Positions 7,128-22,462 of a DNA stretch of 30,388 nt are shown one piece after another. How positions within the stretch are numbered: the first letter of the stretch is position 1; each line of letters starts with the position of its first letter. The notes under the pieces are model-generated. The model worked only from the letters and a program-made list of their open reading frames with translations, was not told the origin of the DNA and did not search any database. Both the position numbers and the translations under genes were made by a program. This DNA comes from Fimbriiglobus sp. (GTDB lineage Bacteria; Planctomycetota; Planctomycetia; Gemmatales; Gemmataceae): positions 1 to 30,388 of the forward strand of contig JAYVXO010000231.1 in assembly GCA_043785105.1 (NCBI GenBank), in the 5' to 3' direction.

Positions 7128-7178
7128 ACGCCGGCGGGGTGCCCCCCGACGCTTGGCAGTTCGCCGAGTCCGTACCCG

Positions 7179-7439: not shown

Positions 7440-7506
7440 ATTTGTCGAGAGGTACAGCGGAGTGCCACTATCGGTAGCCACGCGACAGGTTCAATGTTTT
7501 TCCCCA

Positions 7507-7536
7507 TTGTCTCGGTTTCGATGAGCGTGGTATCAT
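7507..7536 (+). promoter_or_regulatory. candidate sigma70-like promoter for the toxin-antitoxin pair
   Basis: TTGTCT (7507-7512), an 18-nt spacer ending in TGG (an extended -10 like TGn), then TATCAT (7531-7536). It lies about 25 nt upstream of the GAGGA RBS (7551-7555) and ATG 7562. This is a pattern match only, and I do not know the planctomycete promoter consensus. Confidence 0.2.
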
Positions 7537-7561
7537 CAATCAAACGATTTGAGGATGACCG

Positions 7562-8029
7562 ATGCTGATGAGTGAGAACGAAATCATTTCGCCGAATACA
7601 GTTGATGCTCAACTGGCTCAGGAAACGAGTCGTTCACTCGCTACGTACCTCAGCAAAACAAACGGGTCACATCTCAAAATTCAAAACTCCGAGACCGGGG
7701 AAGCACTGAGACTCCCGGCTCCCGCAATGCGGGCGTTACTTCATATTCTCACCGAAATGGGACAAGGCCACGCGGTGACTGTGGTGCCGATCCACACCGA
7801 ACTGTCCACCCAACAAGCCGCCGAGATCCTGAACGTTTCCCACCCGTACCTCCTCAACCTCGTCGATAAAGGAACCATCCCGAGTCGAAAGGCGGGCGTT
7901 CAACGGCGATTGCTACTCAATGACGTGATCTCTTACAAAAATGACCTGTACAACAAACAGGTAAAAGGCATGGAAGAATTAGCAGCGATCGGCCAAGAGA
8001 TGGGCCTCTATGACGATGCCGCCAAATGA
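7562..8029 (+). CDS. helix-turn-helix (excisionase/MerR-type) DNA-binding protein, putative antitoxin
   Basis: Contains the HTH block LSTQQAAEILNVSHPYLLNLVDKGTIPSRKAGVQRRLLLNDVISY. A GAGGA RBS lies 6 nt upstream. The stop overlaps the PIN gene start (ATGA at 8026-8029). Confidence 0.85.
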   Translation: MLMSENEIISPNTVDAQLAQETSRSLATYLSKTNGSHLKIQNSETGEALRLPAPAMRALLHILTEMGQGHAVTVVPIHTELSTQQAAEILNVSHPYLLNLVDKGTIPSRKAGVQRRLLLNDVISYKNDLYNKQVKGMEELAAIGQEMGLYDDAAK

Positions 8030-8595
8030 CCCCGGTCGTCGCAATCTATGATGCCAACGTTTTGTTCCCGCCGTCATTACGCGACTTCCTCGTTTGGTTG
8101 GCGATCACAGGTGCGTGCCGGGCACGGTGGACGGACATGATACACGACGAATGGGTTCGCAACGTCTTGGCGAATCGCCCCGCCGTTAGGTTGGCAAGTC
8201 TCGAACGGTGCCGCCAACTGATGAATGAAAACGTTGCGGACTCGTTGGTGACTGGATTTGAAGAACTGATCCCCACGCTCAGCTTGCCAGATCTCGATGA
8301 TCGGCACGTCCTGGCGGCAGCAATTCACGGCGGGGCCAATTGCATCGTGACGTTCAACCTGAAGGATTTCCCGAGTCAGGAATTGTCGGCCTATCAAATT
8401 GAAGCAATTCACCCCGACGACTTTGTCAGTCAGCTTCTGAATGCGGCACCGGGATTGGTTTATCACGCGGCCCGGCAGCAGCGAGCGACGTTGAAAAACC
8501 CGCCAAAAACCGCCGCCGAACTTCTGGCGACACTCGAAACGGTTGGCTTGCCGCAAACAGCCGACGTAATGCGACGGAACGTCGATCTAATTTGA
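8026..8595 (+). CDS. PIN domain ribonuclease, putative toxin
   Basis: The N-terminal acidic residue sits in VAIYDANVLF. Further conserved acidic positions are in PDLDDRHVLAAAIHGGANCIVTFNLKDF. It is translationally coupled to the upstream HTH gene. Confidence 0.85.
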   Translation: MTPVVAIYDANVLFPPSLRDFLVWLAITGACRARWTDMIHDEWVRNVLANRPAVRLASLERCRQLMNENVADSLVTGFEELIPTLSLPDLDDRHVLAAAIHGGANCIVTFNLKDFPSQELSAYQIEAIHPDDFVSQLLNAAPGLVYHAARQQRATLKNPPKTAAELLATLETVGLPQTADVMRRNVDLI

Positions 8596-8614
8596 AGGAC
8601 TTTCACCAACAGGT

Positions 8615-9286
8615 TCACTTGCCCTTCACCAATTCGAGAACTTCCCAGAGCGACGGGTCGTCCGTGAACGGGAAGTCGCTGTTCACGCTGAGTGTTTGAT
8701 CGCCCAATTCTTGATCGCGGACTTGGTAGAAGACACCGAGACGGGGGTGTTGTTCGGGGTCGTAGCCGCTTAATGTCGATGCGGGAAGGAACGCTTCGAG
8801 TCGATAACCGCCCTTCAGTTTGTGGCACCGAAACAGGACATCGGCGGGCGTGCAGAGTGGTGCTTCCTGCAACGCCCGGTTGATCTTGGTTTGCCCGAAT
8901 GCGGGTTCCTCTTTGTCCGGCCCGCCGCCGGTCGGCAGAAGGTAAAACTGATGGCAATACCGGCTCGCCCGATGCGATACCCGTGCATCACGGGTATCGA
9001 GCCACAGCCACAACCCGTCCGCCGTGCGGGGCTTCTCCGCATCACCCGTCGTCGCTTGGTCTTTCCCCTTCACGACAACCTGCACACCAACGCCGAGTTC
9101 GTTCCATGCGATGCGGACATCAGCAAAGTTTTTGCCGTCATCCAGTGCCGTGAAGTTGTTTAGCCGCGCCGTTTCCGGAAGGTCCACGAGTTGCGTGTCC
9201 TGGTCGCCAGTCAGTGGCATTAGCTTGACGTAAGTGCAAGGATGAGCCACGCGAATTAGGAAACGATTCGGCACGAGTGCAGGCAT
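8615..9286 (-). CDS. conserved hypothetical protein, possibly CBM9-like/DOMON-like beta-sandwich
   Basis: The ORF is clearly protein-like. The blocks ADVRIAWNELGVGVQVVV, DGLWLWLDTRD, YCHQFYLLPTGG and GGYRLEAFLP resemble CBM9_2-type domains, but I recognise this only weakly. The track start at 9331 would run into palindromic element A, so ATG 9286 (MPALVPNRF...) is preferred. No signal peptide. Confidence 0.7.
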   Translation of the reverse strand: MPALVPNRFLIRVAHPCTYVKLMPLTGDQDTQLVDLPETARLNNFTALDDGKNFADVRIAWNELGVGVQVVVKGKDQATTGDAEKPRTADGLWLWLDTRDARVSHRASRYCHQFYLLPTGGGPDKEEPAFGQTKINRALQEAPLCTPADVLFRCHKLKGGYRLEAFLPASTLSGYDPEQHPRLGVFYQVRDQELGDQTLSVNSDFPFTDDPSLWEVLELVKGK

Positions 9287-9314
9287 GAAGACATTCCGTT
9301 TTAGAAGAAGAGTT

Positions 9315-9405
9315 TTCACCACAGAGGGCACGGAGGGCCACAGAGAAAACCATTTGAAATGATTTTTCGATTTCCTCTGTGGCCCTCCGTGCCCTCTGTG
9401 GTGAA
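9315..9405. repeat. palindromic hairpin element A (31-bp perfect stem, 29-nt spacer)
   Basis: 9315-9345 (ttcaccacagagggcacggagggccacagag) is the exact reverse complement of 9375-9405. The left arm contains CACAGAG/CACGGAG/CACAGAG at 9320, 9329 and 9339. The spacer is A/T-rich (aaaaccatttgaaatgatttttcgatttc). Confidence 0.9.
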
Positions 9406-9424
9406 TCCGTTTTAAGTGAGTTAA

Positions 9425-10402
9425 TCAGTCCCCGTGTGGGTGGGCGGGGGCGGTGGTTGGTGGGTTCAACAGGCTTCGCGCCAGGACGTCCTTGGCTTTG
9501 TCGAACTCCGGTTGCCAGTGAATTTCCGGGCTACCGTCCCGCATACAGTCGCGGATTTTTTCGAGCGTGTTCAGGGCCATGTGCGGGCACTTGTTGCAGG
9601 CGCACGTGATTCCTGGGACGGGCAGGTACGTGTGTTGGGCGAACCGCGATTCGAGTTGCCAGAGCATGTTCGGCTCGGTGGCGACAATGAACGTGGTCGG
9701 GGCTTTGAAGCTGCCGACGTGCTTAATCATCGCCTCCGTGCCGCCGATGAACTCGACGTGCTCCAGCACGTTGGCCGGGCATTCGGGGTGTGCCATCGTG
9801 ACGGCGGCGGGGTGTTGCTTCTTTTGCTTGATGAGGTCGTGAACACTGAAAATCTCATGCACCATGCACGAGCCGTTCCACAAGATCATGTCCCGCCCGG
9901 TCACGCCTTGCAGGTAGCGCCCGAGGTGTTGGTCCGGGACGAACAAAATTTCGTGATCCTGCGGGACTTTGTTCCGCACCACGTCTTCCGCGTTGCCGGA
10001 GGTCACGATCCAATCGGAGAGGGCCTTCACTTTGGCGGAACTGTTGATGTACGTGACCGTTTGAAACTTGCGGCCATTCTCGCGGAGCATCTCTTGATAG
10101 CGGGCCAGTTTCTCCGGTGGGCACGAATCGACGAGGCTACATCCGGCTTTCAGGTCCGGCAGCAGCACCTTCTTCGACGGGTTCAACATCTTGGCGGTTT
10201 CCGCCATGAACAGCACGCCGCAAAACACGATAACCGGCGTGTCCACTTTAGTCGCTTCGCGCGCCAGTTTCAGGCTATCCCCGGTGATGTCCGCGAGTTC
10301 CTGAATCTCGCCTTCTTGGTAGTAATGTGCCAGGATCGTGGCGCCGATTTTCTTCTTGAGATCCTGAATTTCCGACGCGATGTCGTCGATGACTGCCGGC
10401 AT
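9425..10402 (-). CDS. nadA: quinolinate synthase
   Basis: NadA-typical blocks [53 protein letters not shown] and CACNKCPHM. Length 325 aa. Confidence 0.93.
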
Positions 10403-10533
10403 GGTAAGCCCCTTGTTTTTACGGTGGCGGAGGGTGAACCCACGGGAGCGGATTACTCACTGTTATCATACGCCGACCGAGTGCGATCAAGTAGGATGCA
10501 ACTTCGTCTGATCCTGAACATCTGGAGTGACCG

Positions 10534-11058
10534 ATGAGCCGACCGAATGCCACCGATTACGCCACGTTCTACGAAACGTATGTTTCACTTGTGCCCGAGG
10601 ACGACGTACTTCAAGCGATGAAGTCACAGACTGATGAACTGTTTCCCTTCCTGCGTGGCATCACGGAACAAGTCGCTTGTCTACGACATCCACCGTACAC
10701 CTGGAGCGTGAAGGAGGTCATCGGCCACCTGCTCGACGCGGAACGAGTTTTCGCCTATCGCGCACTCCGGTTCGCCCGCAACGATGGCACCGCACTCGCC
10801 GGCTTCGATGAAAACAATTACATGCAAGCCGCTCAATTCGACTGCTATCGCTTCAGTGATCTGGTCGCGGAGTTTGAATCCCTCCGCCGATCGCACCTGC
10901 TCTTCTTCAACAACCTGCCCGCAACAGCGTGGTCTCGGATCGGGATCGCCTCCGAAAACAAGGTGACCGTGAACGCGCTGGCTTACATCATCGTCGGCCA
11001 CGTGCGTCACCACACGGCGATATTGCGGAAGCGGTTGAGTGTTGATAGCCGCAGTTGA
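10534..11058 (+). CDS. DinB family protein (DinB_2/YfiT-like metal-dependent four-helix bundle)
   Basis: Shows the histidine-triad pattern (IGHLLDAERVFAYRAL ... IVGHVRHHTAIL) and is 174 aa long. A GGAG RBS lies 6 nt upstream of ATG 10534. Confidence 0.82.
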   Translation: MSRPNATDYATFYETYVSLVPEDDVLQAMKSQTDELFPFLRGITEQVACLRHPPYTWSVKEVIGHLLDAERVFAYRALRFARNDGTALAGFDENNYMQAAQFDCYRFSDLVAEFESLRRSHLLFFNNLPATAWSRIGIASENKVTVNALAYIIVGHVRHHTAILRKRLSVDSRS

Positions 11059-11122
11059 ACTCCAAAGTAAAATGCGGGACAATTAAGACATCTCGACCGA
11101 CCGTGTTTGAGGAGTGCAGACC

Positions 11123-11947
11123 ATGATCGTTCCGTTTCGATCGTCACCGCCCGTTGTGATCGACTACCCCGATGATGATGGAAAGCCAATGTCCGACAAC
11201 ACGCTGCAGTTCCAGTGGATTTACACACTCCAGGGTGGTCTGGATAATCTGTTCCGGGACAACCCGAATGTCTTCGTGGCCGGGAATTTGTTGTGGTACC
11301 CGGTCGAAGGCAAAAACAAGATTCGCCAGGCGCCCGATGCGATGGTGGCGTTCGGTCGGCCCAAGGGCTATCGCGGGAGCTACAAGCAATGGGTGGAAAA
11401 CGGGATAGCACCACAAGTCGTTTTTGAGGTGCTATCGCCAGGAAATCGCCCCCGAGGAATGGCCAAGAAGCTACTCTTTTATGAAAAGTATGGTGCCGAA
11501 GAATATTACATCTATGATCCCGATCACGTCACGATGACGGGCTACCTCCGGAGCAATTCCGGGTTCTACCAACCGATTGTGGAAATGAACGGTTTCATTA
11601 GCCCCCGGTTGGGAATCCACTTTGATTTAAGTGGTGTCGAACTTGCAGTCCTCCGCCCCGATGGGAATCGGTTCCTGACGTACCTTGAACAATGCGAACG
11701 GAATGCCCAGGAATCCCAACGCGCCACGCAGGAAGCCCAACGCGCAGCGCAAGAAGCGCAACGCGCCGCCCAGGAATCCCAACGTGCTAATCAAGAAGCG
11801 CAACGCGCCGCCCAGGAATCCCAACGTGCTAATCAAGAAGCCCAACGCGCGGAGACGCAATTAAAACGAGCGGATGATCTCGATCAACGTCTGGAACGGT
11901 TGCGGGCGAAGATGCTTGCGGCGGGTTTAGACCCGGATGGGAATTGA
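11123..11947 (+). CDS. Uma2 (DUF820) family PD-(D/E)XK endonuclease with a C-terminal heptad-repeat tail
   Basis: Uma2 blocks DDGKPMSDNTLQFQWI, PNVFVAGNLLWYP, APDAMVAFG, PQVVFEVLSPGN and YEKYGAEEYYIYDP. The tail is QE(A/S)QRAx x 7 and ends LRAKMLAAGLDPD. ATG 11123 sits 8 nt after GAGGAG. The track start is GTG 11114. Confidence 0.9.
   Translation: MIVPFRSSPPVVIDYPDDDGKPMSDNTLQFQWIYTLQGGLDNLFRDNPNVFVAGNLLWYPVEGKNKIRQAPDAMVAFGRPKGYRGSYKQWVENGIAPQVVFEVLSPGNRPRGMAKKLLFYEKYGAEEYYIYDPDHVTMTGYLRSNSGFYQPIVEMNGFISPRLGIHFDLSGVELAVLRPDGNRFLTYLEQCERNAQESQRATQEAQRAAQEAQRAAQESQRANQEAQRAAQESQRANQEAQRAETQLKRADDLDQRLERLRAKMLAAGLDPDGN
11708..11854 (+). repeat. 7 x 21-nt in-frame tandem repeat inside the Uma2 gene
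   Basis: The units start at 11708, 11729, 11750, 11771, 11792, 11813 and 11834, each of the form CARGAAKCSCAACGYGC... Units 3-4 (11750-11791) are exactly duplicated as units 5-6 (11792-11833). Confidence 0.95.
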
Positions 11948-12040
11948 CCTCACGCCTTTTTTCATCGCCTCTGGCATGGGGTTCGCGTAGTGTTTCAACG
12001 TGACCTTGCCCCATTTTGAAACTCTTCCGGAGTGTGCGAT

Positions 12041-12751
12041 ATGTTAACCCGTCGTGATCTTTTCCGTGTCGCGGGTGTAGCAGTGGCGGCCCCGACTTTG
12101 TTCGCAACGGCCCGCGCCGCCGAGACCAAAGCCGCTGGGTTTACGCTTGCCAAGTTGCCGTATGCCTACGAGTTCCTTGAACCGATCATCGACGCCGAGA
12201 CGATGACGATTCACCACGACAAGCACCACCAAGCCTACGTCGATAACCTGAACAAAGCCCTGGCCGGGGCGGACGATTGGTTGAAGATGCCGATCGAAGA
12301 AGTCGTCAAAAAGGTGAAGGAAGCCCCCGAGAAAGTTCGCGCGGCGGTCCGCAACAACGGCGGCGGGCACTGGAACCACGACTTCTTCTGGAGCCTGATG
12401 ACGAAGCCGGGCTTGGGTGGCGCACCGAAGGGCGATCTCGCCAAGGCGATTGACACGAGCTTCGGCGGGTTGGACGGCTTCAAGAAAGAATTCACCGCAG
12501 CATCTGTCGGTCGCTTCGGAAGTGGTTGGGCATGGCTGGTGCCGGGCAAGGAAAAACCACTGGCGATCGTCAGCAGCCCGAACCAGGACAACCCATTAAT
12601 GGACGGCGGCCCACGCCCGGTTCTCGGCATCGACGTGTGGGAACACGCCTATTACTTGAAGTACCGCAACTTGCGGGCGAAATATGTCGAAGCATGGTTC
12701 GGCGTCATCAACTGGGATGTGGTTGCAGCGAACTTCGCCAAGAAGGGGTAA
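12041..12751 (+). CDS. Fe/Mn-family superoxide dismutase with a twin-arginine signal peptide
   Basis: SOD blocks LPYAYEFLEPIIDAETMTIHHDKHHQAYV, NNGGGHWNHDFFW, FGSGWAWLV and GIDVWEHAYYLKYRN. The N-terminus is MLTRRDLFRVAGVAVAAPTLFATARA-AE (Tat-like TRRDLF with an AxA site). ATG 12041 is preferred over the track GTG 12032. Confidence 0.93.
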   Translation: MLTRRDLFRVAGVAVAAPTLFATARAAETKAAGFTLAKLPYAYEFLEPIIDAETMTIHHDKHHQAYVDNLNKALAGADDWLKMPIEEVVKKVKEAPEKVRAAVRNNGGGHWNHDFFWSLMTKPGLGGAPKGDLAKAIDTSFGGLDGFKKEFTAASVGRFGSGWAWLVPGKEKPLAIVSSPNQDNPLMDGGPRPVLGIDVWEHAYYLKYRNLRAKYVEAWFGVINWDVVAANFAKKG

Positions 12752-12765
12752 CACGGGATAAGAAT

Positions 12766-12896
12766 TTAACCACGGAATACACGGATAACACGGAAGAAAT
12801 CCCAAGCCGAAATTGTGCCAGAGTGGGCGAACGGTTTCTTGGCATAGTTTTTCAGTTTTGATTTCTTTCCGTTATTTCCGTGTCTTCCGTGGTTAA
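12766..12896. repeat. palindromic hairpin element B (imperfect 35-36-nt arms, 60-nt spacer)
   Basis: The left arm 12766-12800 (ttaaccacggaatacacggataacacggaagaaat) pairs with 12861-12896 (atttctttccgttatttccgtgtcttccgtggttaa). The outer 12 bp are perfect, then there is one mismatch, then 7 bp, then several bulges. CACGGAA/CACGGAT/CACGGAA lie at 12771, 12780 and 12789. An extra CACGGGA lies at 12752. Confidence 0.85.
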
Positions 12897-12913
12897 GACT
12901 CTTGGTATCCGAC

Positions 12914-13669
12914 TTACAGGAGTCGCTTCACCAAATCTGCCATGCGGCCAACGGCAAGCTTGGCGGTGGCTTCGACTTCTTTGTGGCTGAGCGGGCCGTC
13001 GGTGATTCCGGCGGCCTTGTTCGTGATGCACGACAACCCCGCAACTTCCAGACCTCTCTCAACTGCCGCTTCCGCTTCCATCGCGGTGGACATGCCGACC
13101 GCGTCTGCTCCCAGACTTTTCAGTGCGCGAATCTCAGCGGGCGTTTCGTAACAAGGCCCCGTCAGTGCGGCGTAGGTTCCGAACAGCAGTTCCGGCGCGT
13201 CGCCTTGTAATTTCGCAATCAGTGCGGGCGTGTAGACACGCTTGCTCGTGGTATCCTCACGCCACGCCCTTGCGCCGAGCCACTTCATGTGGGCGCGAAT
13301 TCCCATCACGCTGCCGGGATTGAGTGCCGGATGAATCCCGCCCGCAGCATTCGTTAGGATCACCCGCTTGACACCGAGATCGGCAACGAGGTTGATAAGG
13401 CGTGTCACGCGGTCCCACGGATGGCCTTCGTAGAAGTGGACGCGACCGAAACAAACAAGCACCGGGATGGCATTCCACATGCCGACGGAAAGTTGCCCCT
13501 TGTGCCCCGCAATTGTCGGCGGGACCAAACCTGGGATGTCGCCGTAGTGGACAGTCGCCGACTCGATAAACTCTTCGGTGACACCCGTTAACCCGGAGCC
13601 TAGGACGATGGCAGTGCGGGGGCGAAGTGCGTGAACACAATCACAGAATGGATCGAACGGAAGCGTCAT
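12914..13669 (-). CDS. purine nucleoside phosphorylase (PNP/MTAP family, PunA-like)
   Basis: Family blocks AIVLGSGL, GHKGQLSVG, GRVHFYEG, ILTNAAGG, TGPCYETPAEIRALKSLGADAVGMST and LSCITNKAAG. The ATG overlaps the upstream stop (ATGA at 13669-13666). Confidence 0.88.
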   Translation of the reverse strand: MTLPFDPFCDCVHALRPRTAIVLGSGLTGVTEEFIESATVHYGDIPGLVPPTIAGHKGQLSVGMWNAIPVLVCFGRVHFYEGHPWDRVTRLINLVADLGVKRVILTNAAGGIHPALNPGSVMGIRAHMKWLGARAWREDTTSKRVYTPALIAKLQGDAPELLFGTYAALTGPCYETPAEIRALKSLGADAVGMSTAMEAEAAVERGLEVAGLSCITNKAAGITDGPLSHKEVEATAKLAVGRMADLVKRLL

Positions 13670-14385
13670 GACACCGTGTCCAAGTCGATGCCGCTGCCTG
13701 ACGGGTCCGGGATTTGTTTGCTCCGCACGACGTGGGCGATCAGTTCAGCCGTCGTTTGCAAGCCTTGCCGCGTGGAGTTGACGCACAGGTCGTAACAGGT
13801 TGGGTCGATGATCGCTAGATCGGTCAACGAGCTAATGAACAAGTCGCGGCGGCGGTCGCGGTTCTGGGCCTCGACCGCCGCTTCTAATTCCGTGAGGCGT
13901 AACGATTGGCTGAGGTACGCGATCCGCTGTTCGATGGGCGCGACGATCCGAACGTGAACGGTCGTCTCGGGCGGTAAGAGAAACCCCGCACCCCGTCCCA
14001 CTAACACGACTTCGCCTCGGGCAGCCAGGGTGAAAATCACCCTGGCAATCGCCGCAGTATCGCTCGCGGGGATTAACTCGCGGCGCCGGAGCAGTCTCGA
14101 CCATTCGAGTTCGGCCCATTGCTGGGCGGGCAGGGGGGTATCCTTCAAAAACTCGTCCCGCGCCGATTCGTCGTGGGCGAGGTAGTCGAGCATGTCGTGC
14201 GAGAACACTTGCCAGCCAAGCAACTCGCCGACGGCAATCGCAATGCTACTGCCACGTGCCCCAGCTTCACGGCTAATTGCGACCGTGAACGACTGCGGTC
14301 GTTGCAAAACCGGGGGCGGAGTGCCAACACCGCGGTAGCCGTGCAACGGCGCGTCATCGGGCTTCAAATCCGCACCAGGCATCAT
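13666..14385 (-). CDS. cytidylate kinase-like family protein (Cytidylate_kin2-type, lysine-less P-loop)
   Basis: AISREAGARGSSIAIAVGELLGWQVFSHDMLD resembles the I.I.R..GSGG..IA..LA..LG family signature. ATG 14385 follows a GAGAGGA RBS. The track start at 14388 is TTG. Confidence 0.72.
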   Translation of the reverse strand: MMPGADLKPDDAPLHGYRGVGTPPPVLQRPQSFTVAISREAGARGSSIAIAVGELLGWQVFSHDMLDYLAHDESARDEFLKDTPLPAQQWAELEWSRLLRRRELIPASDTAAIARVIFTLAARGEVVLVGRGAGFLLPPETTVHVRIVAPIEQRIAYLSQSLRLTELEAAVEAQNRDRRRDLFISSLTDLAIIDPTCYDLCVNSTRQGLQTTAELIAHVVRSKQIPDPSGSGIDLDTVS

Positions 14386-14411
14386 CAATTCCTCTCACCC
14401 CGACAAAGAAC

Positions 14412-14529
14412 TCAACCACGAATCACACGAATAAGACGAATCAAACCCAGATCATTGAGAAAGAAAATCGGAATTGTTGGGGTACTGTTTGTGGTTCTGA
14501 TTCGTTCAATTCGTGTCATTCGTGGTGAC
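14412..14529. repeat. palindromic hairpin element C (imperfect arms of about 38 nt, spacer of about 42 nt)
   Basis: The left arm 14412-14449 (tcaaccacgaatcacacgaataagacgaatcaaaccca) pairs with 14492-14529 (tggttctgattcgttcaattcgtgtcattcgtggtgac), giving about 33 pairs with a few mismatches and bulges. CACGAAT/CACGAAT/GACGAAT lie at 14417, 14426 and 14435. Confidence 0.85.
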
Positions 14530-14538
14530 TCGTTCGGG

Positions 14539-15522
14539 TTATGTTTCTTCCTGGGGTTCCTGGCGACCGAACAGATAGCTGCCGATCAGCGTCAACACGA
14601 GCGTGACGCCAATGAGCGTCGCCCAGGCAGTGCTGCTGTCGAGCGGGGCGTAAACGTCGAGGCTTTCGGGGGTGACGACATTTAAGGTTGCCGTCGCCTC
14701 ATTATATAGCAACGACCGCACGTAATAGTTGAGGCTCAACTGCTTCAAGCTACCGGGAAGGTTGGCCACCAAAGTTTCAAAGAAGAAGATGTAAACCAGC
14801 CCGACGACTGCCGGGCGGCGAAACAGGGCGCCGATGAGATGGAACAGGGCGGCGAAGCTAATCGTCCCGGCCACGACTGCGGGCCAGTACGTCTGCAAGG
14901 CGCGCTGCCCGAGTGAACCACCCGCCAAGCACAGCACCACGAACCCACCGCCGGACGCCAACAGGCACCACGGCAACCCGCCCAGGAACTTCGCTAGATA
15001 CACCGACCAGCGGGGCAACGGTCGGGTCATCAACCAGATCATGGTGCGGCTTTCGCGCTCTGCGCCGAGACTGGCGGACGCATAGGCCAGGGTAAACAAC
15101 GGCAACAGAAACCCGAGGTGCATCGTGAAGACGACCCACCGGGAGAAGTTCAAGAACGCCCAATCGTCGAGGAACTTCCGGTCCGACAGAATGGTGCGGA
15201 ACGGTGCGAAAATCGCCATGTAGATCGCGGAGCCTTCGGAGGGCAATGGCGTCATTTGCAGCAGGTCGAGTTGAGCCGGGATGTCACGGACCATCATTTG
15301 GAATCGGAACGAAAACCGATTCTCCAGACTCCACCCGGAAGGTCCGTGGGTGAGGACCGCGACCGCGACCGTCAGAATGCCGAGCAGCCCAAGCGCGACC
15401 CAGCCCATCTGCCGAACCCGCCACTGCCGCCAAAACGAAAACACAACCAGTGCCAAGAATGCGTTGAACACGGAGGTCGGGGTCGATTCCGTTGTTACTT
15501 GCGGGGCGAGTTCTGCTGTCAT
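14539..15522 (-). CDS. ABC-2 type transporter permease-like membrane protein
   Basis: Polytopic membrane protein carrying the ABC-2 permease hallmark SLGAERESRTMIWLMTRPLPRWSVYLAKFLGG. ATG 15522 has a GGAG upstream. The track GTG at 15573 would overlap the upstream gene by 17 nt. No ATPase partner is present in the window. Confidence 0.72.
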   Translation of the reverse strand: MTAELAPQVTTESTPTSVFNAFLALVVFSFWRQWRVRQMGWVALGLLGILTVAVAVLTHGPSGWSLENRFSFRFQMMVRDIPAQLDLLQMTPLPSEGSAIYMAIFAPFRTILSDRKFLDDWAFLNFSRWVVFTMHLGFLLPLFTLAYASASLGAERESRTMIWLMTRPLPRWSVYLAKFLGGLPWCLLASGGGFVVLCLAGGSLGQRALQTYWPAVVAGTISFAALFHLIGALFRRPAVVGLVYIFFFETLVANLPGSLKQLSLNYYVRSLLYNEATATLNVVTPESLDVYAPLDSSTAWATLIGVTLVLTLIGSYLFGRQEPQEET

Positions 15523-15556
15523 CCGTTCCAACTCCGAAGACGCATTTCTTGATACG

Positions 15557-16372
15557 CTATGATACGCCAGCACTACTGGTATTGTACTGCTGGACGAAGT
15601 AATAGACGGCCAGGCTGAACGCGATGACGATCACCGCCCACCGCACATACGCAGCCGGCAACCGCCGTGCCACGCGGGCGCCAGTGTAGCCGCCCGCGAT
15701 GGCCGCAACCGCCATGACCGCCGCATATTCCCAGTGAATCAAGTCCCCGATGATGAACACCACCACAGACACCGCGTTAATTACGGAGGCTAGGAACGTC
15801 TTCACGGCGTTCATGTGGTGAATATCCCCGACACCCATGAAGCCGAGTGACGTTAGCATCAGGATGCCAATCCCCGCGCCGAAGTACCCACCATATACAG
15901 CCACAAGAAACTGAAACCCAATCAGCACCGCGAGCATTCCCGGTCCCGGCTCCTTGGGAACTGCGGCGTGATTCTTCTTGAGCAGTTTGTTGAGCGGCTG
16001 CTGAACGAGAAATAAGGTCGCCGCAGTCAGAATTAACCACGGCACGAGATTGCGGAAATACTCGGGAAAATAGACGAGGAGTAACGACCCGATCAACCCG
16101 CCAACGAAGCTGGGCGCGAGCATTCGCACGACAAACCGGCGCGAATCCTTCAACTCCTTGCGGTACCCCCAGGCCCCGGCGAGCGAGCCGGGCATCAGGG
16201 CAATGGTGCTCGTGGCATTCGCCACGCTAGCCATTCCGGGCAACGCCGCGAACAGGGCGGGGAACGTCAACAACGTGCCGCCACCGGCGATGGAGTTCAT
16301 CACCCCGGCGAGAAACGCGGACGTACCGAGTGCGATGTAAGTCGAAGTAACGTCAGGCATCGGAAGTTCCAC
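15557..16372 (-). CDS. TauE/SafE (DUF81) family sulfite/anion exporter
   Basis: Contains the family signature GVMNSIAGGGTLLTFPAL. There are about 8 TM helices and an internal duplication (GGYFGAGIGILML). The start is either GTG 16372 or ATG 16360. Confidence 0.85.
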   Translation of the reverse strand: MELPMPDVTSTYIALGTSAFLAGVMNSIAGGGTLLTFPALFAALPGMASVANATSTIALMPGSLAGAWGYRKELKDSRRFVVRMLAPSFVGGLIGSLLLVYFPEYFRNLVPWLILTAATLFLVQQPLNKLLKKNHAAVPKEPGPGMLAVLIGFQFLVAVYGGYFGAGIGILMLTSLGFMGVGDIHHMNAVKTFLASVINAVSVVVFIIGDLIHWEYAAVMAVAAIAGGYTGARVARRLPAAYVRWAVIVIAFSLAVYYFVQQYNTSSAGVS

Positions 16373-16435
16373 AAGTTAAGCGGCTCCCGTTTTGTACGAA
16401 CCGGAGCGTCCCGTTGCCTGCAATGATAGGCCACG

Positions 16436-17872
16436 TCAAAACAATTCCCGGATCACTTCGCCGCCGTTGGGCAAGAGGTTGTGCTGCCGCCCGCTCGCGT
16501 CGTGGTAGACCGCGTCGAGTGGCACGCCGAAGTATTTGTAGATTGTGGCCGCCAAGTCGCCGGGGTGAACGGGGCGTTCTTGAATCGACCCGCCGTCCTT
16601 GCTCGAACTGCCGATCACCTGCCCGTGCTTCATCCCGCCGCCCGCCATCAGCATCGACATGATGTACGGCCAGTGGTTGCGGCCGTCCGTGCTGTCCTGC
16701 GTGCCCACTTGCGGGGTGCGACCGAACTCACCCATTGCGATCACGAGAACATCGTCCAGCAAGCCGTGGTCCTTCAGGTCATCGACGAGCGTGGTGATGA
16801 GATGATCGAAGAGCGGCAACAGTGGCCCGAGTCCTTTCGTGATGCCGCCGTAGGGCGGGATGTTGTCACCGTGCGTGTCCCAGGTGCCGGACGCGGTGTG
16901 ATAACTCAAGTCCAAGGTCACGAACGCCACGCCAGCTTGCACGAGACGCCGTGCGAGGAGCGTTTGTTGTAGCCACAGGTGCTTGCCGTACTTGTCCCGC
17001 GTTTTGCTCGGCTCCTTCGCCAGATCGAGCGCGTCGCGCACGCGGCTGTTCGTGAGCATGTCAACGGCTTGTTGGCCGTACTTGTCGAACGCCGTCATGT
17101 TGCCACTGGTGTCGATGTCCGCACGCAACTTGTCGAAATCCTTCAATAGCGTTTGCCGATCACCGAGCCGCCCGGAATCAACGCCGACCGGGAGACGAAA
17201 GAGGTCTCCTTTTGAGACGTTCCCGGTGTCCTTGCCGACGAGATCGTAGATCGGCAACTGCGCCGCGGCGTTGACCGGGAAGGGGTCGTACTGCTTGCCG
17301 AGATAGCCCGCAAAGGCGAGGTGCGAACGGCTCCGGAAGAACGCGGCATAGGGTGGCGCTGCCGGGTGGTTGGCACCGTGAAACTTCCCGATCAGCGAGG
17401 CAATCGCGGGGTACTTGACGGCCTCCGGGTTGGTGCGCGGCTCCGCGAGGTTGTTCGCCGTCGTCATGACCGAGTTCGGTTCGTGGTTGCTGTGCCGACA
17501 ATCCACCGCCCGTAGCACGCTAAACCGATCGAACATCCCGGCCAACTTCGGTAGATGTTCGCAGAGCAACACGCCGGGCAGTTTGGTCTTCGTCACCCCG
17601 AACGGGCCACGGTTCTCCGGTGGCCGATCCGGCTTCGGGTCAAACGTGTCAATTTGACTCGGCCCGCCCGTCATCCACAACAGGATCACGCTTTTCTTCG
17701 GCTTGGATGTCCCGGCAATAGCCCGTTGCTGCAACAACGCCGGGACGCTCAACCCTGCCAACCCCGCCAGACTCGCCTTCAACACGTTCCGCCGCGACGG
17801 CAACACCAACCCCTCACGGGTGCGGCCATGAAACGAGCCAAACGCATGCGGGTGTTGGTGCGGAGTCATCAT
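16436..17872 (-). CDS. DUF1501 domain protein (sulfatase-fold, Tat signal)
   Basis: Carries a Tat-type signal (SRRNVLKASLAGLAGLSVPALL) and the blocks SVILLWMTGGPSQIDTFDPKP, WDTHGDN, MGEFGRTP and GRNHWP. The start is set at ATG 17872 (MMTPHQ...). The 42 extra codons in the track translate palindromic element D. Confidence 0.9.
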   Translation of the reverse strand: MMTPHQHPHAFGSFHGRTREGLVLPSRRNVLKASLAGLAGLSVPALLQQRAIAGTSKPKKSVILLWMTGGPSQIDTFDPKPDRPPENRGPFGVTKTKLPGVLLCEHLPKLAGMFDRFSVLRAVDCRHSNHEPNSVMTTANNLAEPRTNPEAVKYPAIASLIGKFHGANHPAAPPYAAFFRSRSHLAFAGYLGKQYDPFPVNAAAQLPIYDLVGKDTGNVSKGDLFRLPVGVDSGRLGDRQTLLKDFDKLRADIDTSGNMTAFDKYGQQAVDMLTNSRVRDALDLAKEPSKTRDKYGKHLWLQQTLLARRLVQAGVAFVTLDLSYHTASGTWDTHGDNIPPYGGITKGLGPLLPLFDHLITTLVDDLKDHGLLDDVLVIAMGEFGRTPQVGTQDSTDGRNHWPYIMSMLMAGGGMKHGQVIGSSSKDGGSIQERPVHPGDLAATIYKYFGVPLDAVYHDASGRQHNLLPNGGEVIRELF

Positions 17873-17889
17873 GTATTTCCATCCAATCA

Positions 17890-17950
17890 AAGCCCACGGA
17901 TCATGATCCGTAGGCGTTCGTGATCCGTGGCGTTCGTGATCCGTGGGCTT
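17890..17950. repeat. asymmetric palindromic/tandem element D
   Basis: aagcccacggatca (17890-17903) is the exact reverse complement of tgatccgtgggctt (17937-17950). A 16-nt perfect palindrome acggatcatgatccgt lies at 17896-17911. The 16-mer gcgttcgtgatccgtg is repeated exactly in tandem at 17914-17929 and 17930-17945. Confidence 0.9.
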
Positions 17951-17955
17951 GACTT

Positions 17956-20460
17956 CTACTGGTTGAACACAAACTCTTTCGTGTTGAGCAGTGCCCACAG
18001 GATGTTCTCGTAGGCTTGCCGCTTGTTCTTGTCGTTTTTCTGGATGTGGTCGAGGGCAGTTTTCAAGTCACTCTCAGTCGGCTTGCGGGCCAGTGCCCAG
18101 AGGAACAGTTCTTCGATTTTCTCCGCGTCGGGGCGTTTGTCGTTGCTGCCCGAGAGCACGTCGGCGCGGCCGTTGCCACGGGTCAGTTTGCCTTGCACTT
18201 CATCGCTGTTGAGGAGATGCAAAGCTTGCGCGAGGTTGGCTTCGTTGACGCGCTCACATTCGCAGGCGCTGATGCGTTGGGGCTTGCCGAAGACTTCGAG
18301 GAAGTAGCTGCTGAACGACTCGTCCGGCAGTTGGATCGCCCGGTTCGGGGCGTTCTTGTCACGTGGCAGGCCGTTGAATTGTTGCGTGCTGTCCGTGACC
18401 TGGTTCAACGCATCCAACAGCACTTCCGCCCCAAGTCGTTTCGGGTAGTACCGGGCGTAGTTTTGCTTGTCGTGCTTGTTGAAGTCGTTGGGCACCGACG
18501 ACAGTTGATACGTGCGGCTTTTCACGATGGTCTTGATGAGCGACTTCAAACTGAACTGGTTGTCGATCAGGTTCTGCGTGAGCGCGTCCAACAGTTCGGG
18601 GTTCGACGGCGGGTTGGTCACGCGCATGTCGTCGGGCGCGTCCACGATGCCGCGTGTGAAGAAGTGTGCCCAATACCGATTCGCAACGGCTTTGGCGAAG
18701 AACGGGTTCTTCGTGTCCACCATCCACTCAATGAGCTTGTTTCGTGGGTCGTCTTCCGCAGCCACCTCCATCGGCGCGCCGTCGAGGGGCTTGATCGCAG
18801 CCGGTTTGTTGGTGCGTTTATTCGACACGGTGCCGGTGGTGCGGGTGAAGATCACTTGCGTCTTAATTTGACCCCGTTGGGCGTCGAAGCCGGGCTTCGT
18901 CAGTTCCTTGCGACCGACCCGCCCGAAGAACGCTGCGAAGCCCCAGTAATCGTCTTGGCTCCATTTTTCGTAGGGGTGGTGGTGGCAGTTCGCGCACGCC
19001 AACCGCTGGCCGAGAAACACTTGGGCAACGTCATCGACGTAGTTCTCGGGCTTTTCCAGTTCCTTGTACCAGACCGTGGCGGGGTTGTTGGTTTCATCAC
19101 CCGTCGCGGTCAGGATGTGCCGGGCGAAGTCGCTGTACGGCATGTCGGCGGCAACCGCTTCCTTGATCCACGCATGAAACGCAAAGGTGCCCGCCGCACG
19201 TTGTTGCTCACCGCGTCGTTTCACTCGCAACACGTCCGCCCACTTGTTCGCAAAGTAATCGCTGTAGTCGCTGGTTTCGAGAAGCTGGTCGATCAGCTTG
19301 TCACGCTTATTTTTCGAGGTGTCCGTTAGGAACGCAAGGACTTGCTTCGGGGTCGGCAGCGTGCCGGTTAGGTCCAACATCACCCGTCGAACAAACACTT
19401 CATCGCCGCACAAGTCTGCTGGCACAAGGCCGAGTTCCTTCCACTTCTTCGTGGTGAACTGATCGACAATCGTTTTCTCCGCGAACTCCCATTTCGGCGT
19501 CGGCGTGCCCAGTGGAACGGTGGTTCGGAACACTGCAACTCGGCCCTGGTAGCGGGCCATGATCGCCGCTTCGCCGCTCTGGTTCAGCGTGGTCACGAGT
19601 GCGTTTCCGTCCACGCTCGCAATCTCGGCGTCGTTGCTCTCGTACTGGGCGCGACGGGTGATGTCTTCGACGGTGCCATCGGTGTAGTGGGCGTAGACCG
19701 CGAATTGTTGCGTGTTGTGCCGCGTCAAAATGCGGTGTTCCGGGTACACGCTAATCTTAGCCACGGTCGGGTCGGACTCAGCGCCATACGGCGCACCGGC
19801 CGCAATCCAGCGGCGGATGATCTTATACTCGTCGCTGCCCGGCTCCATTTTCTTGCCACCGCCGTGCGGTACTGCGCCGATCGCCTTCATCAAAAACAGC
19901 GATTGGTCCGGCGACGCCGGGAACAGTCGCCGACCGCGCGCTTCCTTCACCAGCGTCATGTAATCGAACTCCGGTTCAAAGCCGAGCAGCGAAATCCGAA
20001 ACCCGTTTTGCCCGGACGCTTTGCCATGACACCCGCCGCTGTTGCACCCCAGTTTGGTGAACACCGGCACGACTTGGTTCGGGAAATTGATCGGCAAGTT
20101 CATGTCAATCTGCGAAGCCAACACTGGCACCTGGACGGACAGGGTGCCATAGCTCACGGCGATTTCTGTGCTGCCGTTCACGCCGGGAAGCACCCGACCC
20201 GTCGGCGACACTGTCACGGTTTTGCCGTCCACGACCGCAAACTTCACCGCCTGAGTCAGGTCTTGCAGTCGGCCATCTTTTAGCGTGGCCGTAACCACAA
20301 GTTGCGTGGAATCGTCCCGACTTTTCAGCGACACTGCCGTCGGGTGGACCATGAGTTTCGCAATCTGCTCCGGTTTCGGTAACGCCGTCTCGTTGGCTTT
20401 TGTTGAGTTTGAACCCGCAATCGTGAACGTGATCGCAACCGCGAAGTGTCGCAACAGCAT
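17956..20460 (-). CDS. DUF1549/DUF1553 (PSCyt2/PSD1) protein with N-terminal Ig-like (Big_2) domain
   Basis: Blocks FTKLGCNSGGCHGKASGQNGFRISL, CANCHHHPYEKWSQDDYWGFAAFF, and C-terminal PSD1-like ACECERVNEANLAQALHLLN. It is the usual upstream partner of DUF1501. ATG 20460 (MLLRHFAVAITFTIAG, signal-like) is preferred over the track start 20583. Confidence 0.9.
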   Translation of the reverse strand: MLLRHFAVAITFTIAGSNSTKANETALPKPEQIAKLMVHPTAVSLKSRDDSTQLVVTATLKDGRLQDLTQAVKFAVVDGKTVTVSPTGRVLPGVNGSTEIAVSYGTLSVQVPVLASQIDMNLPINFPNQVVPVFTKLGCNSGGCHGKASGQNGFRISLLGFEPEFDYMTLVKEARGRRLFPASPDQSLFLMKAIGAVPHGGGKKMEPGSDEYKIIRRWIAAGAPYGAESDPTVAKISVYPEHRILTRHNTQQFAVYAHYTDGTVEDITRRAQYESNDAEIASVDGNALVTTLNQSGEAAIMARYQGRVAVFRTTVPLGTPTPKWEFAEKTIVDQFTTKKWKELGLVPADLCGDEVFVRRVMLDLTGTLPTPKQVLAFLTDTSKNKRDKLIDQLLETSDYSDYFANKWADVLRVKRRGEQQRAAGTFAFHAWIKEAVAADMPYSDFARHILTATGDETNNPATVWYKELEKPENYVDDVAQVFLGQRLACANCHHHPYEKWSQDDYWGFAAFFGRVGRKELTKPGFDAQRGQIKTQVIFTRTTGTVSNKRTNKPAAIKPLDGAPMEVAAEDDPRNKLIEWMVDTKNPFFAKAVANRYWAHFFTRGIVDAPDDMRVTNPPSNPELLDALTQNLIDNQFSLKSLIKTIVKSRTYQLSSVPNDFNKHDKQNYARYYPKRLGAEVLLDALNQVTDSTQQFNGLPRDKNAPNRAIQLPDESFSSYFLEVFGKPQRISACECERVNEANLAQALHLLNSDEVQGKLTRGNGRADVLSGSNDKRPDAEKIEELFLWALARKPTESDLKTALDHIQKNDKNKRQAYENILWALLNTKEFVFNQ

Positions 20461-20681
20461 GGGAGAAGCCCTCGATAACGGAAAGGCCATTCGGCGGGAT
20501 GTCGGCAAGTCGCAAACGGAATGTAACCGGCAGGAAAGGTATTGTGCGGCATAACCGGATGAGATGCAAGCGCGAACAATCACAGCTGAGACCCGAATCC
20601 GTTTGCGACCCGGTTTTCCTCGGCCCTTCGATGGCTTCGTTGGTATCCTGTACCTTCATCAATCACACAGGGGTAGCGTTC

Positions 20682-21659
20682 ATGGGTGTGGATGTGGCCG
20701 GGACGGCGGCGAAAATCGTCGCCAACATGGAGAAGGTGATTATCGGCAAGCGTCCGCAACTGGCGCTGGCGTTGGCCGCGTACTTCAGTGAAGGCCACAT
20801 TCTGCTCGAAGATGTTCCGGGTGTGGCCAAGACGATGTTCGCGCGGGCACTGGCCCGCAGCGTGGGTTGCACCTTCAAGCGGCTCCAGTGTACGCCCGAC
20901 TTGTTGCCGACCGACGTGACCGGCGTGTCGATCTTCAACCAGAAGACGACGGAGTTCGAGTTCCGCCCCGGCCCGGTGTTCGCGCAAACTCTGCTGACGG
21001 ACGAAATCAATCGGGCCACGCCGCGAACGCAAGCCGCACTGCTGGAGGCGATGGCCGAGCGCCGCGTGAGTGCGGACGGCCAAACCTATGTTCTGAAGCC
21101 GCCATTCCTAGTGATTGCAACGCAAAACCCGGTTGACCAAGAAGGCACATTTCCCCTGCCGGAAGCGCAACTCGACCGCTTCCTGGTGCGGCTGAGTCTG
21201 GGTTACCCGACGTATGAAGAAGAATCCAAGATGCTGACGCGGTTGCAAAAAGGTCACCCGATCGACGACCTGCAACCCGTCGTGGGCGCGCAAGATGTCA
21301 TCAACTGCCAGGACGCCATCCGCGATATTCACGTCGATGACAAGATTAAGCGCTACCTTCTCGACATCGTTCACGGCAGTCGGGAACACGAAGACGTCAT
21401 GCTCGGCGGCAGTCCCCGCGCTTCGATTGCGTTGTTTCGCTGTGCCCAATCGCTCGCCGCCATTCAGGGCCGTGACTTCGTCATCCCCGACGACGTGAAA
21501 CGCATGGCCCAACCCGTCATGGCCCACCGGCTAATTCTGAAGCCCGAAAGTCGGCTCCGCAAAAAGACCCCGTCGATCGTGGTGAAAGAACTGGTCGGCG
21601 ACGCCAAGGTGCCACTCATCGACCGCGATTATGCCGTGAATAAAGAGTATTTCGGATGA
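20682..21659 (+). CDS. MoxR-family AAA+ ATPase
   Basis: Blocks GHILLEDVPGVAKT (Walker A region), LLTDEINRATPRTQAALLEAMAERRVS (Walker B/sensor), FLVIATQNP and GGSPRASIAL. ATG 20682 gives the typical length of about 325 aa. The 61 upstream codons in the track are Arg/Cys-rich and not protein-like. Confidence 0.93.
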   Translation: MGVDVAGTAAKIVANMEKVIIGKRPQLALALAAYFSEGHILLEDVPGVAKTMFARALARSVGCTFKRLQCTPDLLPTDVTGVSIFNQKTTEFEFRPGPVFAQTLLTDEINRATPRTQAALLEAMAERRVSADGQTYVLKPPFLVIATQNPVDQEGTFPLPEAQLDRFLVRLSLGYPTYEEESKMLTRLQKGHPIDDLQPVVGAQDVINCQDAIRDIHVDDKIKRYLLDIVHGSREHEDVMLGGSPRASIALFRCAQSLAAIQGRDFVIPDDVKRMAQPVMAHRLILKPESRLRKKTPSIVVKELVGDAKVPLIDRDYAVNKEYFG

Positions 21660-21679
21660 CGGGTTGCGGCGAAGCCATG

Positions 21680-21874
21680 AACAGCCGGATCACGAAAACA
21701 CGAAAGTACGAAAGCGCGAAATAAGAGTACGAGGAGTTGCTTAGTCACGGCGGGTTCGTGGTGAGAATGGTTACTTCAAGTCACTGAATTCAAGAACCAC
21801 GAGGAACGAAAATGAAGCTTAAGCTTTCGGATTTTTTCGTGTTTTCGTACTTTCGTGTTTTCGTGATCGGTTTT
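21680..21874. repeat. palindromic hairpin element E (arms of about 37 nt, spacer of about 110 nt)
   Basis: 21685-21721 pairs with 21835-21870, giving 36 pairs if two G-T positions count as wobble, with one bulged G. The units CACGAAA/CACGAAA/TACGAAA/CGCGAAA lie at 21691, 21699, 21707 and 21715. The spacer holds degenerate units and the 12-nt palindrome AAGCTTAAGCTT (21815-21826). Confidence 0.88.
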
Positions 21875-21912
21875 ACATTCGGACGGTGTTGTCGTGATTC
21901 TTCGAGGCACCC

Positions 21913-22284
21913 ATGAGCCACGAGTTTGAGCCGCTGTCGGCCACGATCATTCAAGCCGCCATTGACGTTCACAAGGCACTCGGGCCGGGGTTCCTCGAAG
22001 CGATCTATCACCGGGCGTTGCGTGTGGCCCTCTTGCACCGGGAGGTTCCTCACGAGGTGCAGAAAGAAGTTCGGGTCGCGTTCGAGGGGGTCGATGTCGG
22101 CGTCCATGTCCTCGACCTGTTCGTGGCCGGTCAGATTGTCGTGGAGTTGAAGGCGGTGAAGGCACTGGAAGACATTCACTTTGCTCAGGTGAAGTCGTAC
22201 CTGAAAGCCACAGGGGCGAGAACCGGGTTACTGCTGAACTTCAATGCCCCGACACTCGTGATTAAGCGAGTCATGCTGGGGTAA
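21913..22284 (+). CDS. GxxExxY protein (PD-(D/E)XK nuclease superfamily, PDDEXK_3-like)
   Basis: Contains the signature GPGFLEAIY (G-x-x-E-x-x-Y). The nuclease core D...E.K is in VLDLFVAGQIVVELKAV. It also has AQVKSYLKATGARTGLLLNFN and is 123 aa long. A GAGG RBS lies 6 nt upstream. Confidence 0.9.
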   Translation: MSHEFEPLSATIIQAAIDVHKALGPGFLEAIYHRALRVALLHREVPHEVQKEVRVAFEGVDVGVHVLDLFVAGQIVVELKAVKALEDIHFAQVKSYLKATGARTGLLLNFNAPTLVIKRVMLG

Positions 22285-22356
22285 CAGAGACCGCCTGATT
22301 GCGAATGTATGAATTGGCGAAATAACCATTGGACTAACTTGGTCGTGCCGAAAGAT

Positions 22357-22462
22357 AAAACGGATCACGAAACCACGAAAGTACGAAAACACGAAATAGA
22401 AGCCTAAGATTTTGGATTTTTTTCGTGTTTTCGTACTTTCGTGGTTTCGTGATCCGGCTGTT
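22357..22462. repeat. palindromic hairpin element F (36-bp perfect stem, 24-nt spacer)
   Basis: 22361-22396 (cggatcacgaaaccacgaaagtacgaaaacacgaaa) is the exact reverse complement of 22421-22456. The arms are more than 90% identical to the arms of element E. Confidence 0.92.

Follow-up and report, generated by a model that had tools for sequence, protein, structure and literature searches.

Intergenic hairpins with periodic arms in a Fimbriiglobus contig and their association with GxxExxY-family nuclease genes

Contig JAYVXO010000231.1 of Fimbriiglobus sp. (assembly GCA_043785105.1) raises the question of what the long palindromes between its genes are. A first-pass annotation of this DNA (30,388 nt, referred to below as the window) had described six intergenic hairpins, A to F, with mirrored arms of short periodic units, and an inverted-repeat search of the window found inverted repeats at all six sites. 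Our answer, held with slightly more confidence than doubt, is that A–F are palindromic DNA insertions, all copies belonging to one broad superfamily, similar to REPINs (hairpins formed by paired repetitive extragenic palindromic, REP, sequences) or MITEs (miniature inverted-repeat transposable elements), and linked to a PD-(D/E)XK nuclease of the GxxExxY family. The hairpin family appears to be widespread and undescribed; literature searches on the protein family, the arm sequences, REPINs in Planctomycetes, STRR and heptamer repeats, and PDDEXK nucleases combined with hairpins turned up no description of the link.

The nuclease gene, which the first-pass annotation had overlooked, lies between hairpins E and F. 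Hairpin E (21680..21875) is located 3′ of a MoxR gene and has 37 nt arms (21688–21724 and 21832–21868, 92% complementary) enclosing a loop of 107 nt. Hairpin F (22356..22462) stands 3′ of the stop codon of the GxxExxY gene and 5′ of a DUF58 gene, and its 36 nt arms (22361–22396 and 22421–22456) pair at all 36 of 36 positions (100%), as had been claimed, around a loop of 24 nt. Both are built of ACGAAA units with an 8 nt period, four of them in F. They are near-identical copies of one hairpin, loops included, the loop of E being that of F plus an insertion of ~83 nt, and the earlier description of the elements as sharing an architecture and not a sequence therefore fails for this pair.

The GxxExxY/PDDEXK_3 nuclease gene itself (21913–22284, + strand) encodes 123 aa and is inserted between MoxR and DUF58, operon partners that are adjacent in relatives. 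The open reading frame (ORF) matches TIGR04256 (126.4 bits, cut-off 35) and PF13366 (123.2 bits, cut-off 22), both over the full length. Residues G26, E29, Y32, D68, E78 and K80 are invariant across 23 GxxExxY sequences, and D68, E78 and K80 are the predicted catalytic-type residues of a PD-(D/E)XK nuclease. An AlphaFold2 model of the protein (pLDDT 88) has Cas4 SSO0001 as its best fold match in the PDB, followed by lambda-exonuclease-like nucleases, all of these matches being weak (E 4e-4, TM 0.55), and a sequence search of the PDB with the GxxExxY profile gave no match. The family comprises 24,475 clusters at 50% identity (E ≤ 1e-3), and its function was listed as unknown in a 2012 survey of PD-(D/E)XK proteins (PMC3424549). 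Of the best 150 representatives, about one in four (e.g., P0363, P0368 and P0370) is 240–389 aa long and carries two GxxExxY domains; these may be tandem genes or true fusions.

Is this arrangement peculiar to one locus? In a metagenome sample of 80 loci with homologues at 49–71% identity, a periodic array lies within 300 nt of 48 of the 81 GxxExxY genes. Among genes with full 200 nt flanks, 56 of 63 are bracketed by an inverted repeat (upstream/downstream, with a minimum score of 12), whereas this was so for only 1 of 158 control windows. The commonest layout is left array, gene, right array, with the gene in the loop, and the hairpin–gene–hairpin order seen in the window is the minority; the gene-bearing form of the element has one GxxExxY gene, placed either within the loop or with a hairpin copy on each side. 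The unit sequence differs by clade and is mirrored on the two sides of the gene (CACGAAA, CAGGAA, CAGAAA, ACGCCAAG or CACAGAG), and in these sequence comparisons the arm type tracks the nuclease clade, being the same as in the nearest protein neighbour in 60 of 64 cases. The CACAGAG/CACGGAG units of hairpin A flank a GxxExxY gene at another locus (L025), and are translated within the N-terminal extensions of two distant family members (P0448 and P0508). Other mis-called extensions of homologues translate arrays as well, giving peptides such as ITKTRKNE and FSCFRPFV and, at one C-terminus, a whole hairpin. One metagenome-assembled genome (MAG) carries both a gene-bearing element (L025, 5211–5688) and a solo hairpin (L125, 5023–5173) with identical 33 nt termini of the A type.

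Two other sets of loci with unusual arrays were recorded. In L219–L228, up to ~10 degenerate left and right ACGAAA arms are clustered between a GxxExxY gene and a DUF1501 gene, ~217–680 nt downstream of the former, and the length of the cluster varies between samples by steps of ~130–150 nt. In L234 (IMGVR_UViG_3300045988_116152), a GxxExxY gene near the end of a viral contig is one of the few viral ones to have flanking inverted arrays (AACTACGAATAACACGAAAGACACGAA), with units similar to the C type of the window; this locus may be host DNA at the edge of a prophage.

The remaining four hairpins of the window have no such gene beside them. Hairpin A (9315–9405) has 35 nt arms (9315–9349 and 9371–9405) that are 97% complementary, pairing at 34 of 35 positions and not, as had been stated, at 31 of 31; its loop of 21 nt is shorter than the 24 nt given earlier as the minimum spacer. 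Its CACAGAG/CACGGAG units have a period of 9–10 nt, and it lies 20 nt 3′ of the stop codon of NadA (9425–10402, minus strand; PF02445, E 6e-101). A 367 aa ORF called on the opposite strand (9434–10537, +) is spurious, NadA being the true gene. Hairpin B (12766–12896) has arms of 47 nt at 77% complementarity (87% over the inner 30 nt) with CACGGAA/CACGGAT units and a 9 nt period, and the segment that holds it (12752..12913) is inserted between SOD and PNP, convergent genes whose stop codons are at 12751 and 12914. Hairpin C (14412–14529; arms 14415–14449 and 14492–14526, 35 nt, 83%) consists of CACGAAT units, also at 9 nt, and its segment (14393..14538) separates the stop codon of an ABC-2 permease from the start of a cytidylate-kinase-like gene, both on the minus strand. 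Hairpin D (17889–17950), between the stop of a PSCyt2/PSD1 gene and the start of a DUF1501 gene, has arms of only 17 nt (94%). On our reading, A, B and C represent the gene-less form of the element, comparable to REPINs or MITEs, and D probably does too.

Each arm is an array of three to five short direct repeats of 7–10 nt with a type-specific core. The mirrored, periodic build described in the first-pass annotation was borne out for A, B, C, E and F; in D, a single left unit (CCCACGGATCA; AAAGCCCACGGATCA) stands opposite three right units (TGATCCGTGGCGTTCG), and these have a period of 16 nt rather than the 8 nt reported. At the corresponding site of a relative (L213) there is a plain 15 bp palindrome with one degenerate unit, so D of the window represents a one-sided unit expansion. 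A detector for arrays (the same 5-mer at least three times at a spacing of 7–11 nt) flagged B, C, E and F on both arms; elsewhere in the 30 kb it gave just two weak background matches. In RNA folding compared with 200 dinucleotide shuffles, A reached z-scores of −14.2/−15.1, F −13.2, B −8.8/−7.9, D −5.1 and C −4.9; for none of these five did any of the 200 shuffles fold as well as the real sequence. Annotation with Pfam and NCBIfam placed all six outside credible coding sequences and immediately 3′ of stop codons, which belong to NadA (hairpin A), SOD and PNP (B), the ABC-2 permease (C), PSCyt2/PSD1 (D), MoxR (E) and GxxExxY (F), and the spurious ORF extension KPTDHERHGSRTPTDHD noted earlier was confirmed. 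The grouping of A–F in one architectural class, distinct from CRISPR arrays, whose direct repeats measure 23–50 nt and alternate with unique spacers, was upheld: the units are of 8–10 nt (16 nt in D), with 1–3 nt between cores, and are mirrored.

Comparison with relatives shows gain and loss of the elements at junctions between genes, a short way 3′ of stop codons. In two contigs from different samples (L207 and L208, ~84% nucleotide identity), the stop codons of SOD and PNP are 1 nt apart and hairpin B is absent; in the same contigs the ABC-2 permease and kinase-like genes are 8 nt apart and hairpin C is absent. In three others, with an identical MoxR protein and 91–93% nucleotide identity (L212, L215 and L214, the last being Fimbriiglobus sp. 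GFS_13292), the MoxR–DUF58 junction lacks the GxxExxY gene, E and F altogether, and carries a different GC-rich palindrome followed by the remnant of an ACGAAA right arm, which in L212 corresponds to the outer two units of the right arm of F. A close relative (L210) retains the E–gene–F arrangement; there the right arm of E is shorter by one 8 nt unit and the loop of E has diverged quickly. The number of units and of hairpin copies varies among near-identical contigs, and an ACGAAA hairpin was found within the loop of a CACGGAA hairpin (L065): the elements grow and shrink by whole units and nest in one another. No GxxExxY protein was found in different contexts, as recent jumps would give; P0099 and P0050 occupy a single site each, and only their hairpin copy number varies.

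The sequence of hairpin A is also present in a second, independent assembly, on a contig that stops within the arm (L229, at window position ~9376), and assemblies of relatives break or leave gaps of N exactly at A, B, C and D (L209, covering window positions 12910–14382; L229; L212, 4615–4714), indicating that the palindromes fragment short-read assemblies. L212 also has a 2.7 kb insertion (7178–9923) between a PSD1-family gene and MoxR, absent from the window at 20591/20605, with a 698 aa ORF that has no Pfam match.

How far do the hairpins extend beyond this genus? An ACGAAA search pattern (CACGAAANNACGAAANNACGAAA) with 19 fixed bases, for which ~4 chance matches were estimated in the collection, matched at least 119 stretches in genome contigs. 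Among the matches listed are Planctomycetota, Acidobacteriota, Desulfobacterota, Gemmatimonadota, Nitrospirota, Chloroflexota and others. Solo copies dominate, since of the 119 listed only 2 have a GxxExxY gene within 500 nt. Their arms share a consensus of ~34 nt that is kept across phyla (ATC-ACGAAA-RC-ACGAAA-GY-ACGAAA-AC-ACGAAA), in which the ACGAAA cores are invariant and the 2 nt spacers vary. In the 1.2 Mb sampled around the metagenome loci, periodic arms occur in 112 of 192 hairpins, several loci coming from single MAGs, and further unit types were found in the same loci (ATTGCGG, GGGTAATC, CACAAAGGG and ACCACAGAG). Two earlier statements need revision in this light. Pairing and a short core are not all that is kept, each unit type being a sequence family in itself; and the elements, which had been set apart from REP and REPIN families, are REPIN-like when many genomes are considered, with many solo hairpins and few copies flanking an enzyme gene.

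Other palindromes share these genomes. GC-rich ones without periodicity were found at L212 (11008–11190), L025 (3258–3326), L125 (4389–4475) and L031 (6943–7002), and include one family whose 50 nt arms contain sub-palindromes and another with a GGCGAACCGGCAGCGTTAGCTGCCGGG motif; one of these palindromes has taken the place of the ACGAAA hairpin at the MoxR–DUF58 junction. In L014 (1–560), a short ORF fragment (FGLEDRLIDFAIRII) is surrounded by three different types of array, nested in one another; we take the fragment to resemble the four-helix-bundle proteins encoded in 23S rRNA intervening sequences, and it may represent a second family of small genes sharing this hairpin habitat.

Could the hairpins instead be kept for a function in RNA? 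They would then be selected as 3′-end, insulator or RNase III structures (terminators or stabilisers of mRNA), and the presence of GxxExxY genes would be incidental. The position of all six just 3′ of stop codons, several of them between operon genes, and the great stability of stems of 30–47 bp are what such a role would predict. So is the match between arms at variable positions, which is 113 of 170 against 95.2 ± 3.7 for shuffled arm pairs. Compensation between the arms is seen about two thirds of the time at these positions and spacers; the other third are mismatched while the cores stay invariant, which indicates that sequence matters and not pairing alone, and conservation across phyla likewise extends to the arm sequence and not just to its pairing. 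The first-pass annotation was right that these are not classic intrinsic terminators. A terminator and promoter scan found 20 terminator-like sites against a shuffle expectation of 17.9, and D, which fits the terminator pattern, was the sole hairpin flagged; the others, with their long stems and loops of 21–107 nt, are unlike the short GC-rich stem, 3–8 nt loop and U-tract of a terminator, and the scan showed no U-tracts at them. A search of Rfam at a permissive E-value gave sub-threshold look-alikes of microRNA precursors only (best 57.5 bits, threshold 100). B and C were rejected as terminators in situ on the presence/absence polymorphism in L207 and L208. Their absence at orthologous junctions in a relative of ~84% identity, together with the replacement of the hairpin type at the E/F site, also makes the RNA-level regulatory roles proposed earlier unlikely, if such roles are conserved. 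An RNA function leaves the 56 of 63 bracketed GxxExxY genes unexplained, and we regard it as improbable.

A further alternative is that the cores are sites for an abundant DNA- or RNA-binding protein of the host, the palindromes having arisen by inverted duplication with no mobility of their own. Invariant cores with variable 2 nt spacers, strict periodicity, and the coexistence of many unit types in one genome would all suit a binding array. We know of no candidate factor, however, and the co-variation of arm type with GxxExxY clade is not accounted for; indel polymorphism and the identical ends of gene-bearing and solo copies point to mobile DNA. This explanation appears very improbable. Both it and a role in RNA fit poorly with the polymorphism, the conservation across phyla and the gene association.

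If A–F are instead mobile insertions linked to the nuclease, then the repeated cores would serve as multi-site recognition elements for the cognate enzyme, which would cut the arm or the hairpin or cruciform DNA, and the elements might spread by nuclease-induced break-and-copy or by recombination, without target-site duplication. Where transcribed, stems of >30 bp would become RNase III substrates or 3′ barriers, as a side effect and not the reason for their existence. Whether GxxExxY genes with inverted arrays constitute an unrecognised minimal class of mobile element, with gene-less derivatives at the intergenic junctions of six or more phyla of bacteria, is a more tentative proposition, one that we would put forward as possible and rather doubtful.

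Several observations weigh against the mobile-insertion reading. Mobilisation of the hairpins by the nuclease is something we infer from the linkage of gene and arrays; moreover, no strand-transfer activity is obvious or known to us for a 123 aa nuclease of the GxxExxY type. The flanks of 100 hairpins, whose exact ends are uncertain, showed direct repeats, as a target-site duplication would leave, at chance level (k = 2–6), and none was seen at the junctions of B and C; this lack of duplications argues against cut-and-paste of the DDE type. Spacers and loops vary among the copies of one genome, which speaks against recent bursts of copying. In the 1.2 Mb sampled, no GxxExxY gene was found with units of the C or D type beside it. 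The solo hairpins showed no clear bias among convergent, tandem and divergent gaps (a split of 11/41/12 against 87/272/98 in the background), although the underlying gene calls were too crude for this to be reliable. The 485 ORFs obtained near solo arrays were mostly spurious. Lastly, GxxExxY relatives from viral contigs (28–46% identity) are mostly without flanking inverted repeats, so the association with arrays belongs to a cellular sub-clade and not to the whole protein family; ACGAAA arrays in viral contigs numbered four, and phages are thus not an obvious vector.

Some of the same evidence would suit a different division of labour, in which the hairpins spread by other means and serve as landing pads: a free-standing, homing-type, selfish GxxExxY gene would cut empty cognate hairpins and copy itself into the loop by repair through arm homology. 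At most loci the gene does lie inside a loop, solo and gene-bearing copies of one genome have identical arms, solo copies far exceed gene copies, and the fold is Cas4- or lambda-exonuclease-like and not transposase-like. The lack of target-site duplication would also be expected, and the right-arm remnant at the gene-less MoxR–DUF58 junction suggests that the hairpin predated or outlasted the gene. Homing is compatible with most of the data. It does not explain how the solo hairpins (such as the insertions of B and C) arose and spread, and neither the hairpin–gene–hairpin order nor the clusters of ~10 arms are simple loop insertions; no orthologous pair was found with an empty hairpin on one side and the gene in the same hairpin on the other. 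We consider it rather unlikely.

Among known systems, those that come closest in the way they work are REPINs with their REP-associated tyrosine transposases (RAYTs) and insertion sequences with their MITEs. REPINs and RAYTs are similar in many respects: hairpin-forming intergenic palindromes of ~100 nt are numerous close to the ends of genes, a small enzyme gene is enclosed by a few of the copies, target-site duplications are lacking, and each repeat type is paired with its own enzyme lineage (REPIN traits from PMC3116915 and PMC3337134). The enzymes differ, RAYTs being IS200-like HUH Y1 proteins and the gene here a PD-(D/E)XK nuclease of the GxxExxY family; none of the 20 window ORFs scanned against Pfam matched a Y1 (HUH) transposase. 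The earlier suggestion that the hairpins are relics of a hairpin-mobilising enzyme thus comes near to the reading favoured here, except that RAYT/HUH enzymes are not involved and the associated gene is a nuclease. The arms also differ, consisting of arrays of 7–10 nt direct repeats where a REPIN has single REPs. A REP end carries a conserved GTAG or CGTC tetranucleotide (PMC3733652), and no such tag was found at the arm ends, which begin with ATCAC, GCCAC or CCAC. Furthermore, the inheritance of REPINs is described as vertical, whereas one arm type here spans phyla, and copies within a genome here are not near-identical.

The terminal inverted repeats around a single gene, and the gene-less derivatives with the same ends (33 nt in L025 and L125), recall insertion sequences and MITEs, from which the present elements differ in the lack of target-site duplication and of a DDE, serine or HUH transposase, the 123 aa nuclease being the sole ORF. 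Transposon ends with multiple subterminal binding sites made of repeated short motifs are found in Tn7 and in Ac/Ds, and the ends here likewise consist of such repeated motifs. Palindromes are targeted by some mobile elements, among them IS1397, in REP loops, and group II introns that insert after terminators. Homing endonuclease genes resemble the GxxExxY genes in being small nuclease genes, here between conserved genes or in hairpin loops, with a sporadic distribution among relatives. To our knowledge, homing endonuclease genes normally have no inverted arrays of their own, whereas these GxxExxY genes do, and cleavage and homing here are only putative.

The 23S rRNA intervening sequences carry small ORFs in an RNase III-cleaved stem, and so share with the gene-bearing form a small ORF bracketed by a long stem, an insertion that would be tolerated since processing of the RNA can deal with the stem; the loci described here lie between protein-coding genes, and none of those in the window is in rRNA. 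The attC sites of integrons are also palindromes with imperfect pairing that adjoin promoterless ORFs, and it is in folded form, with little sequence conservation, that they are recognised; the present elements have periodic arms of sequence-conserved types, and no integrase, cassette array or R/L box pattern accompanies them. Intergenic short periodic repeats are known in cyanobacteria as short tandemly repeated repetitive (STRR) sequences. The intergenic TAACTGA heptamer direct repeats of Beggiatoaceae and cyanobacteria (PMC4679880) likewise have 7 nt periodic units, occur in overlapping phyla and cause assemblies to break at the repeats; they are direct arrays, mostly upstream of start codons, with 1 of 170 sets inverted, and an associated nuclease gene was not reported.

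Two other small-gene loci of the window may be mentioned. A Uma2-family gene (11114–11947, +; PF05685) encodes a putative restriction endonuclease and is without a flanking hairpin; Uma2 is a family of small nucleases with many paralogues in these phyla. Overlapping genes with HTH_17 and PIN_3 domains (7562–8029 and 8026–8595, both +) look, from their domains, like a toxin–antitoxin pair.

The link between GxxExxY genes and hairpins offers a testable function for a very large protein family, namely recognising and cutting its own arms. It would explain the recurrent intergenic palindromes and the assembly breaks in genomes of Planctomycetota, Acidobacteriota, Desulfobacterota and related groups, and also the spurious ORF extensions that introduce peptides such as ITKTRKYE or TEGTEGHRE into predicted proteins. 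Should the nuclease mobilise the hairpins, they would make up a prokaryotic mobile element of a new kind. If the more tentative proposition of a minimal mobile class is true, it would amount to a second system resembling REPINs and RAYTs, based on a different enzyme, with a Cas4/RecB-like nuclease as its only protein, and would provide a function for a protein family of ~24,000 clusters at 50% identity.

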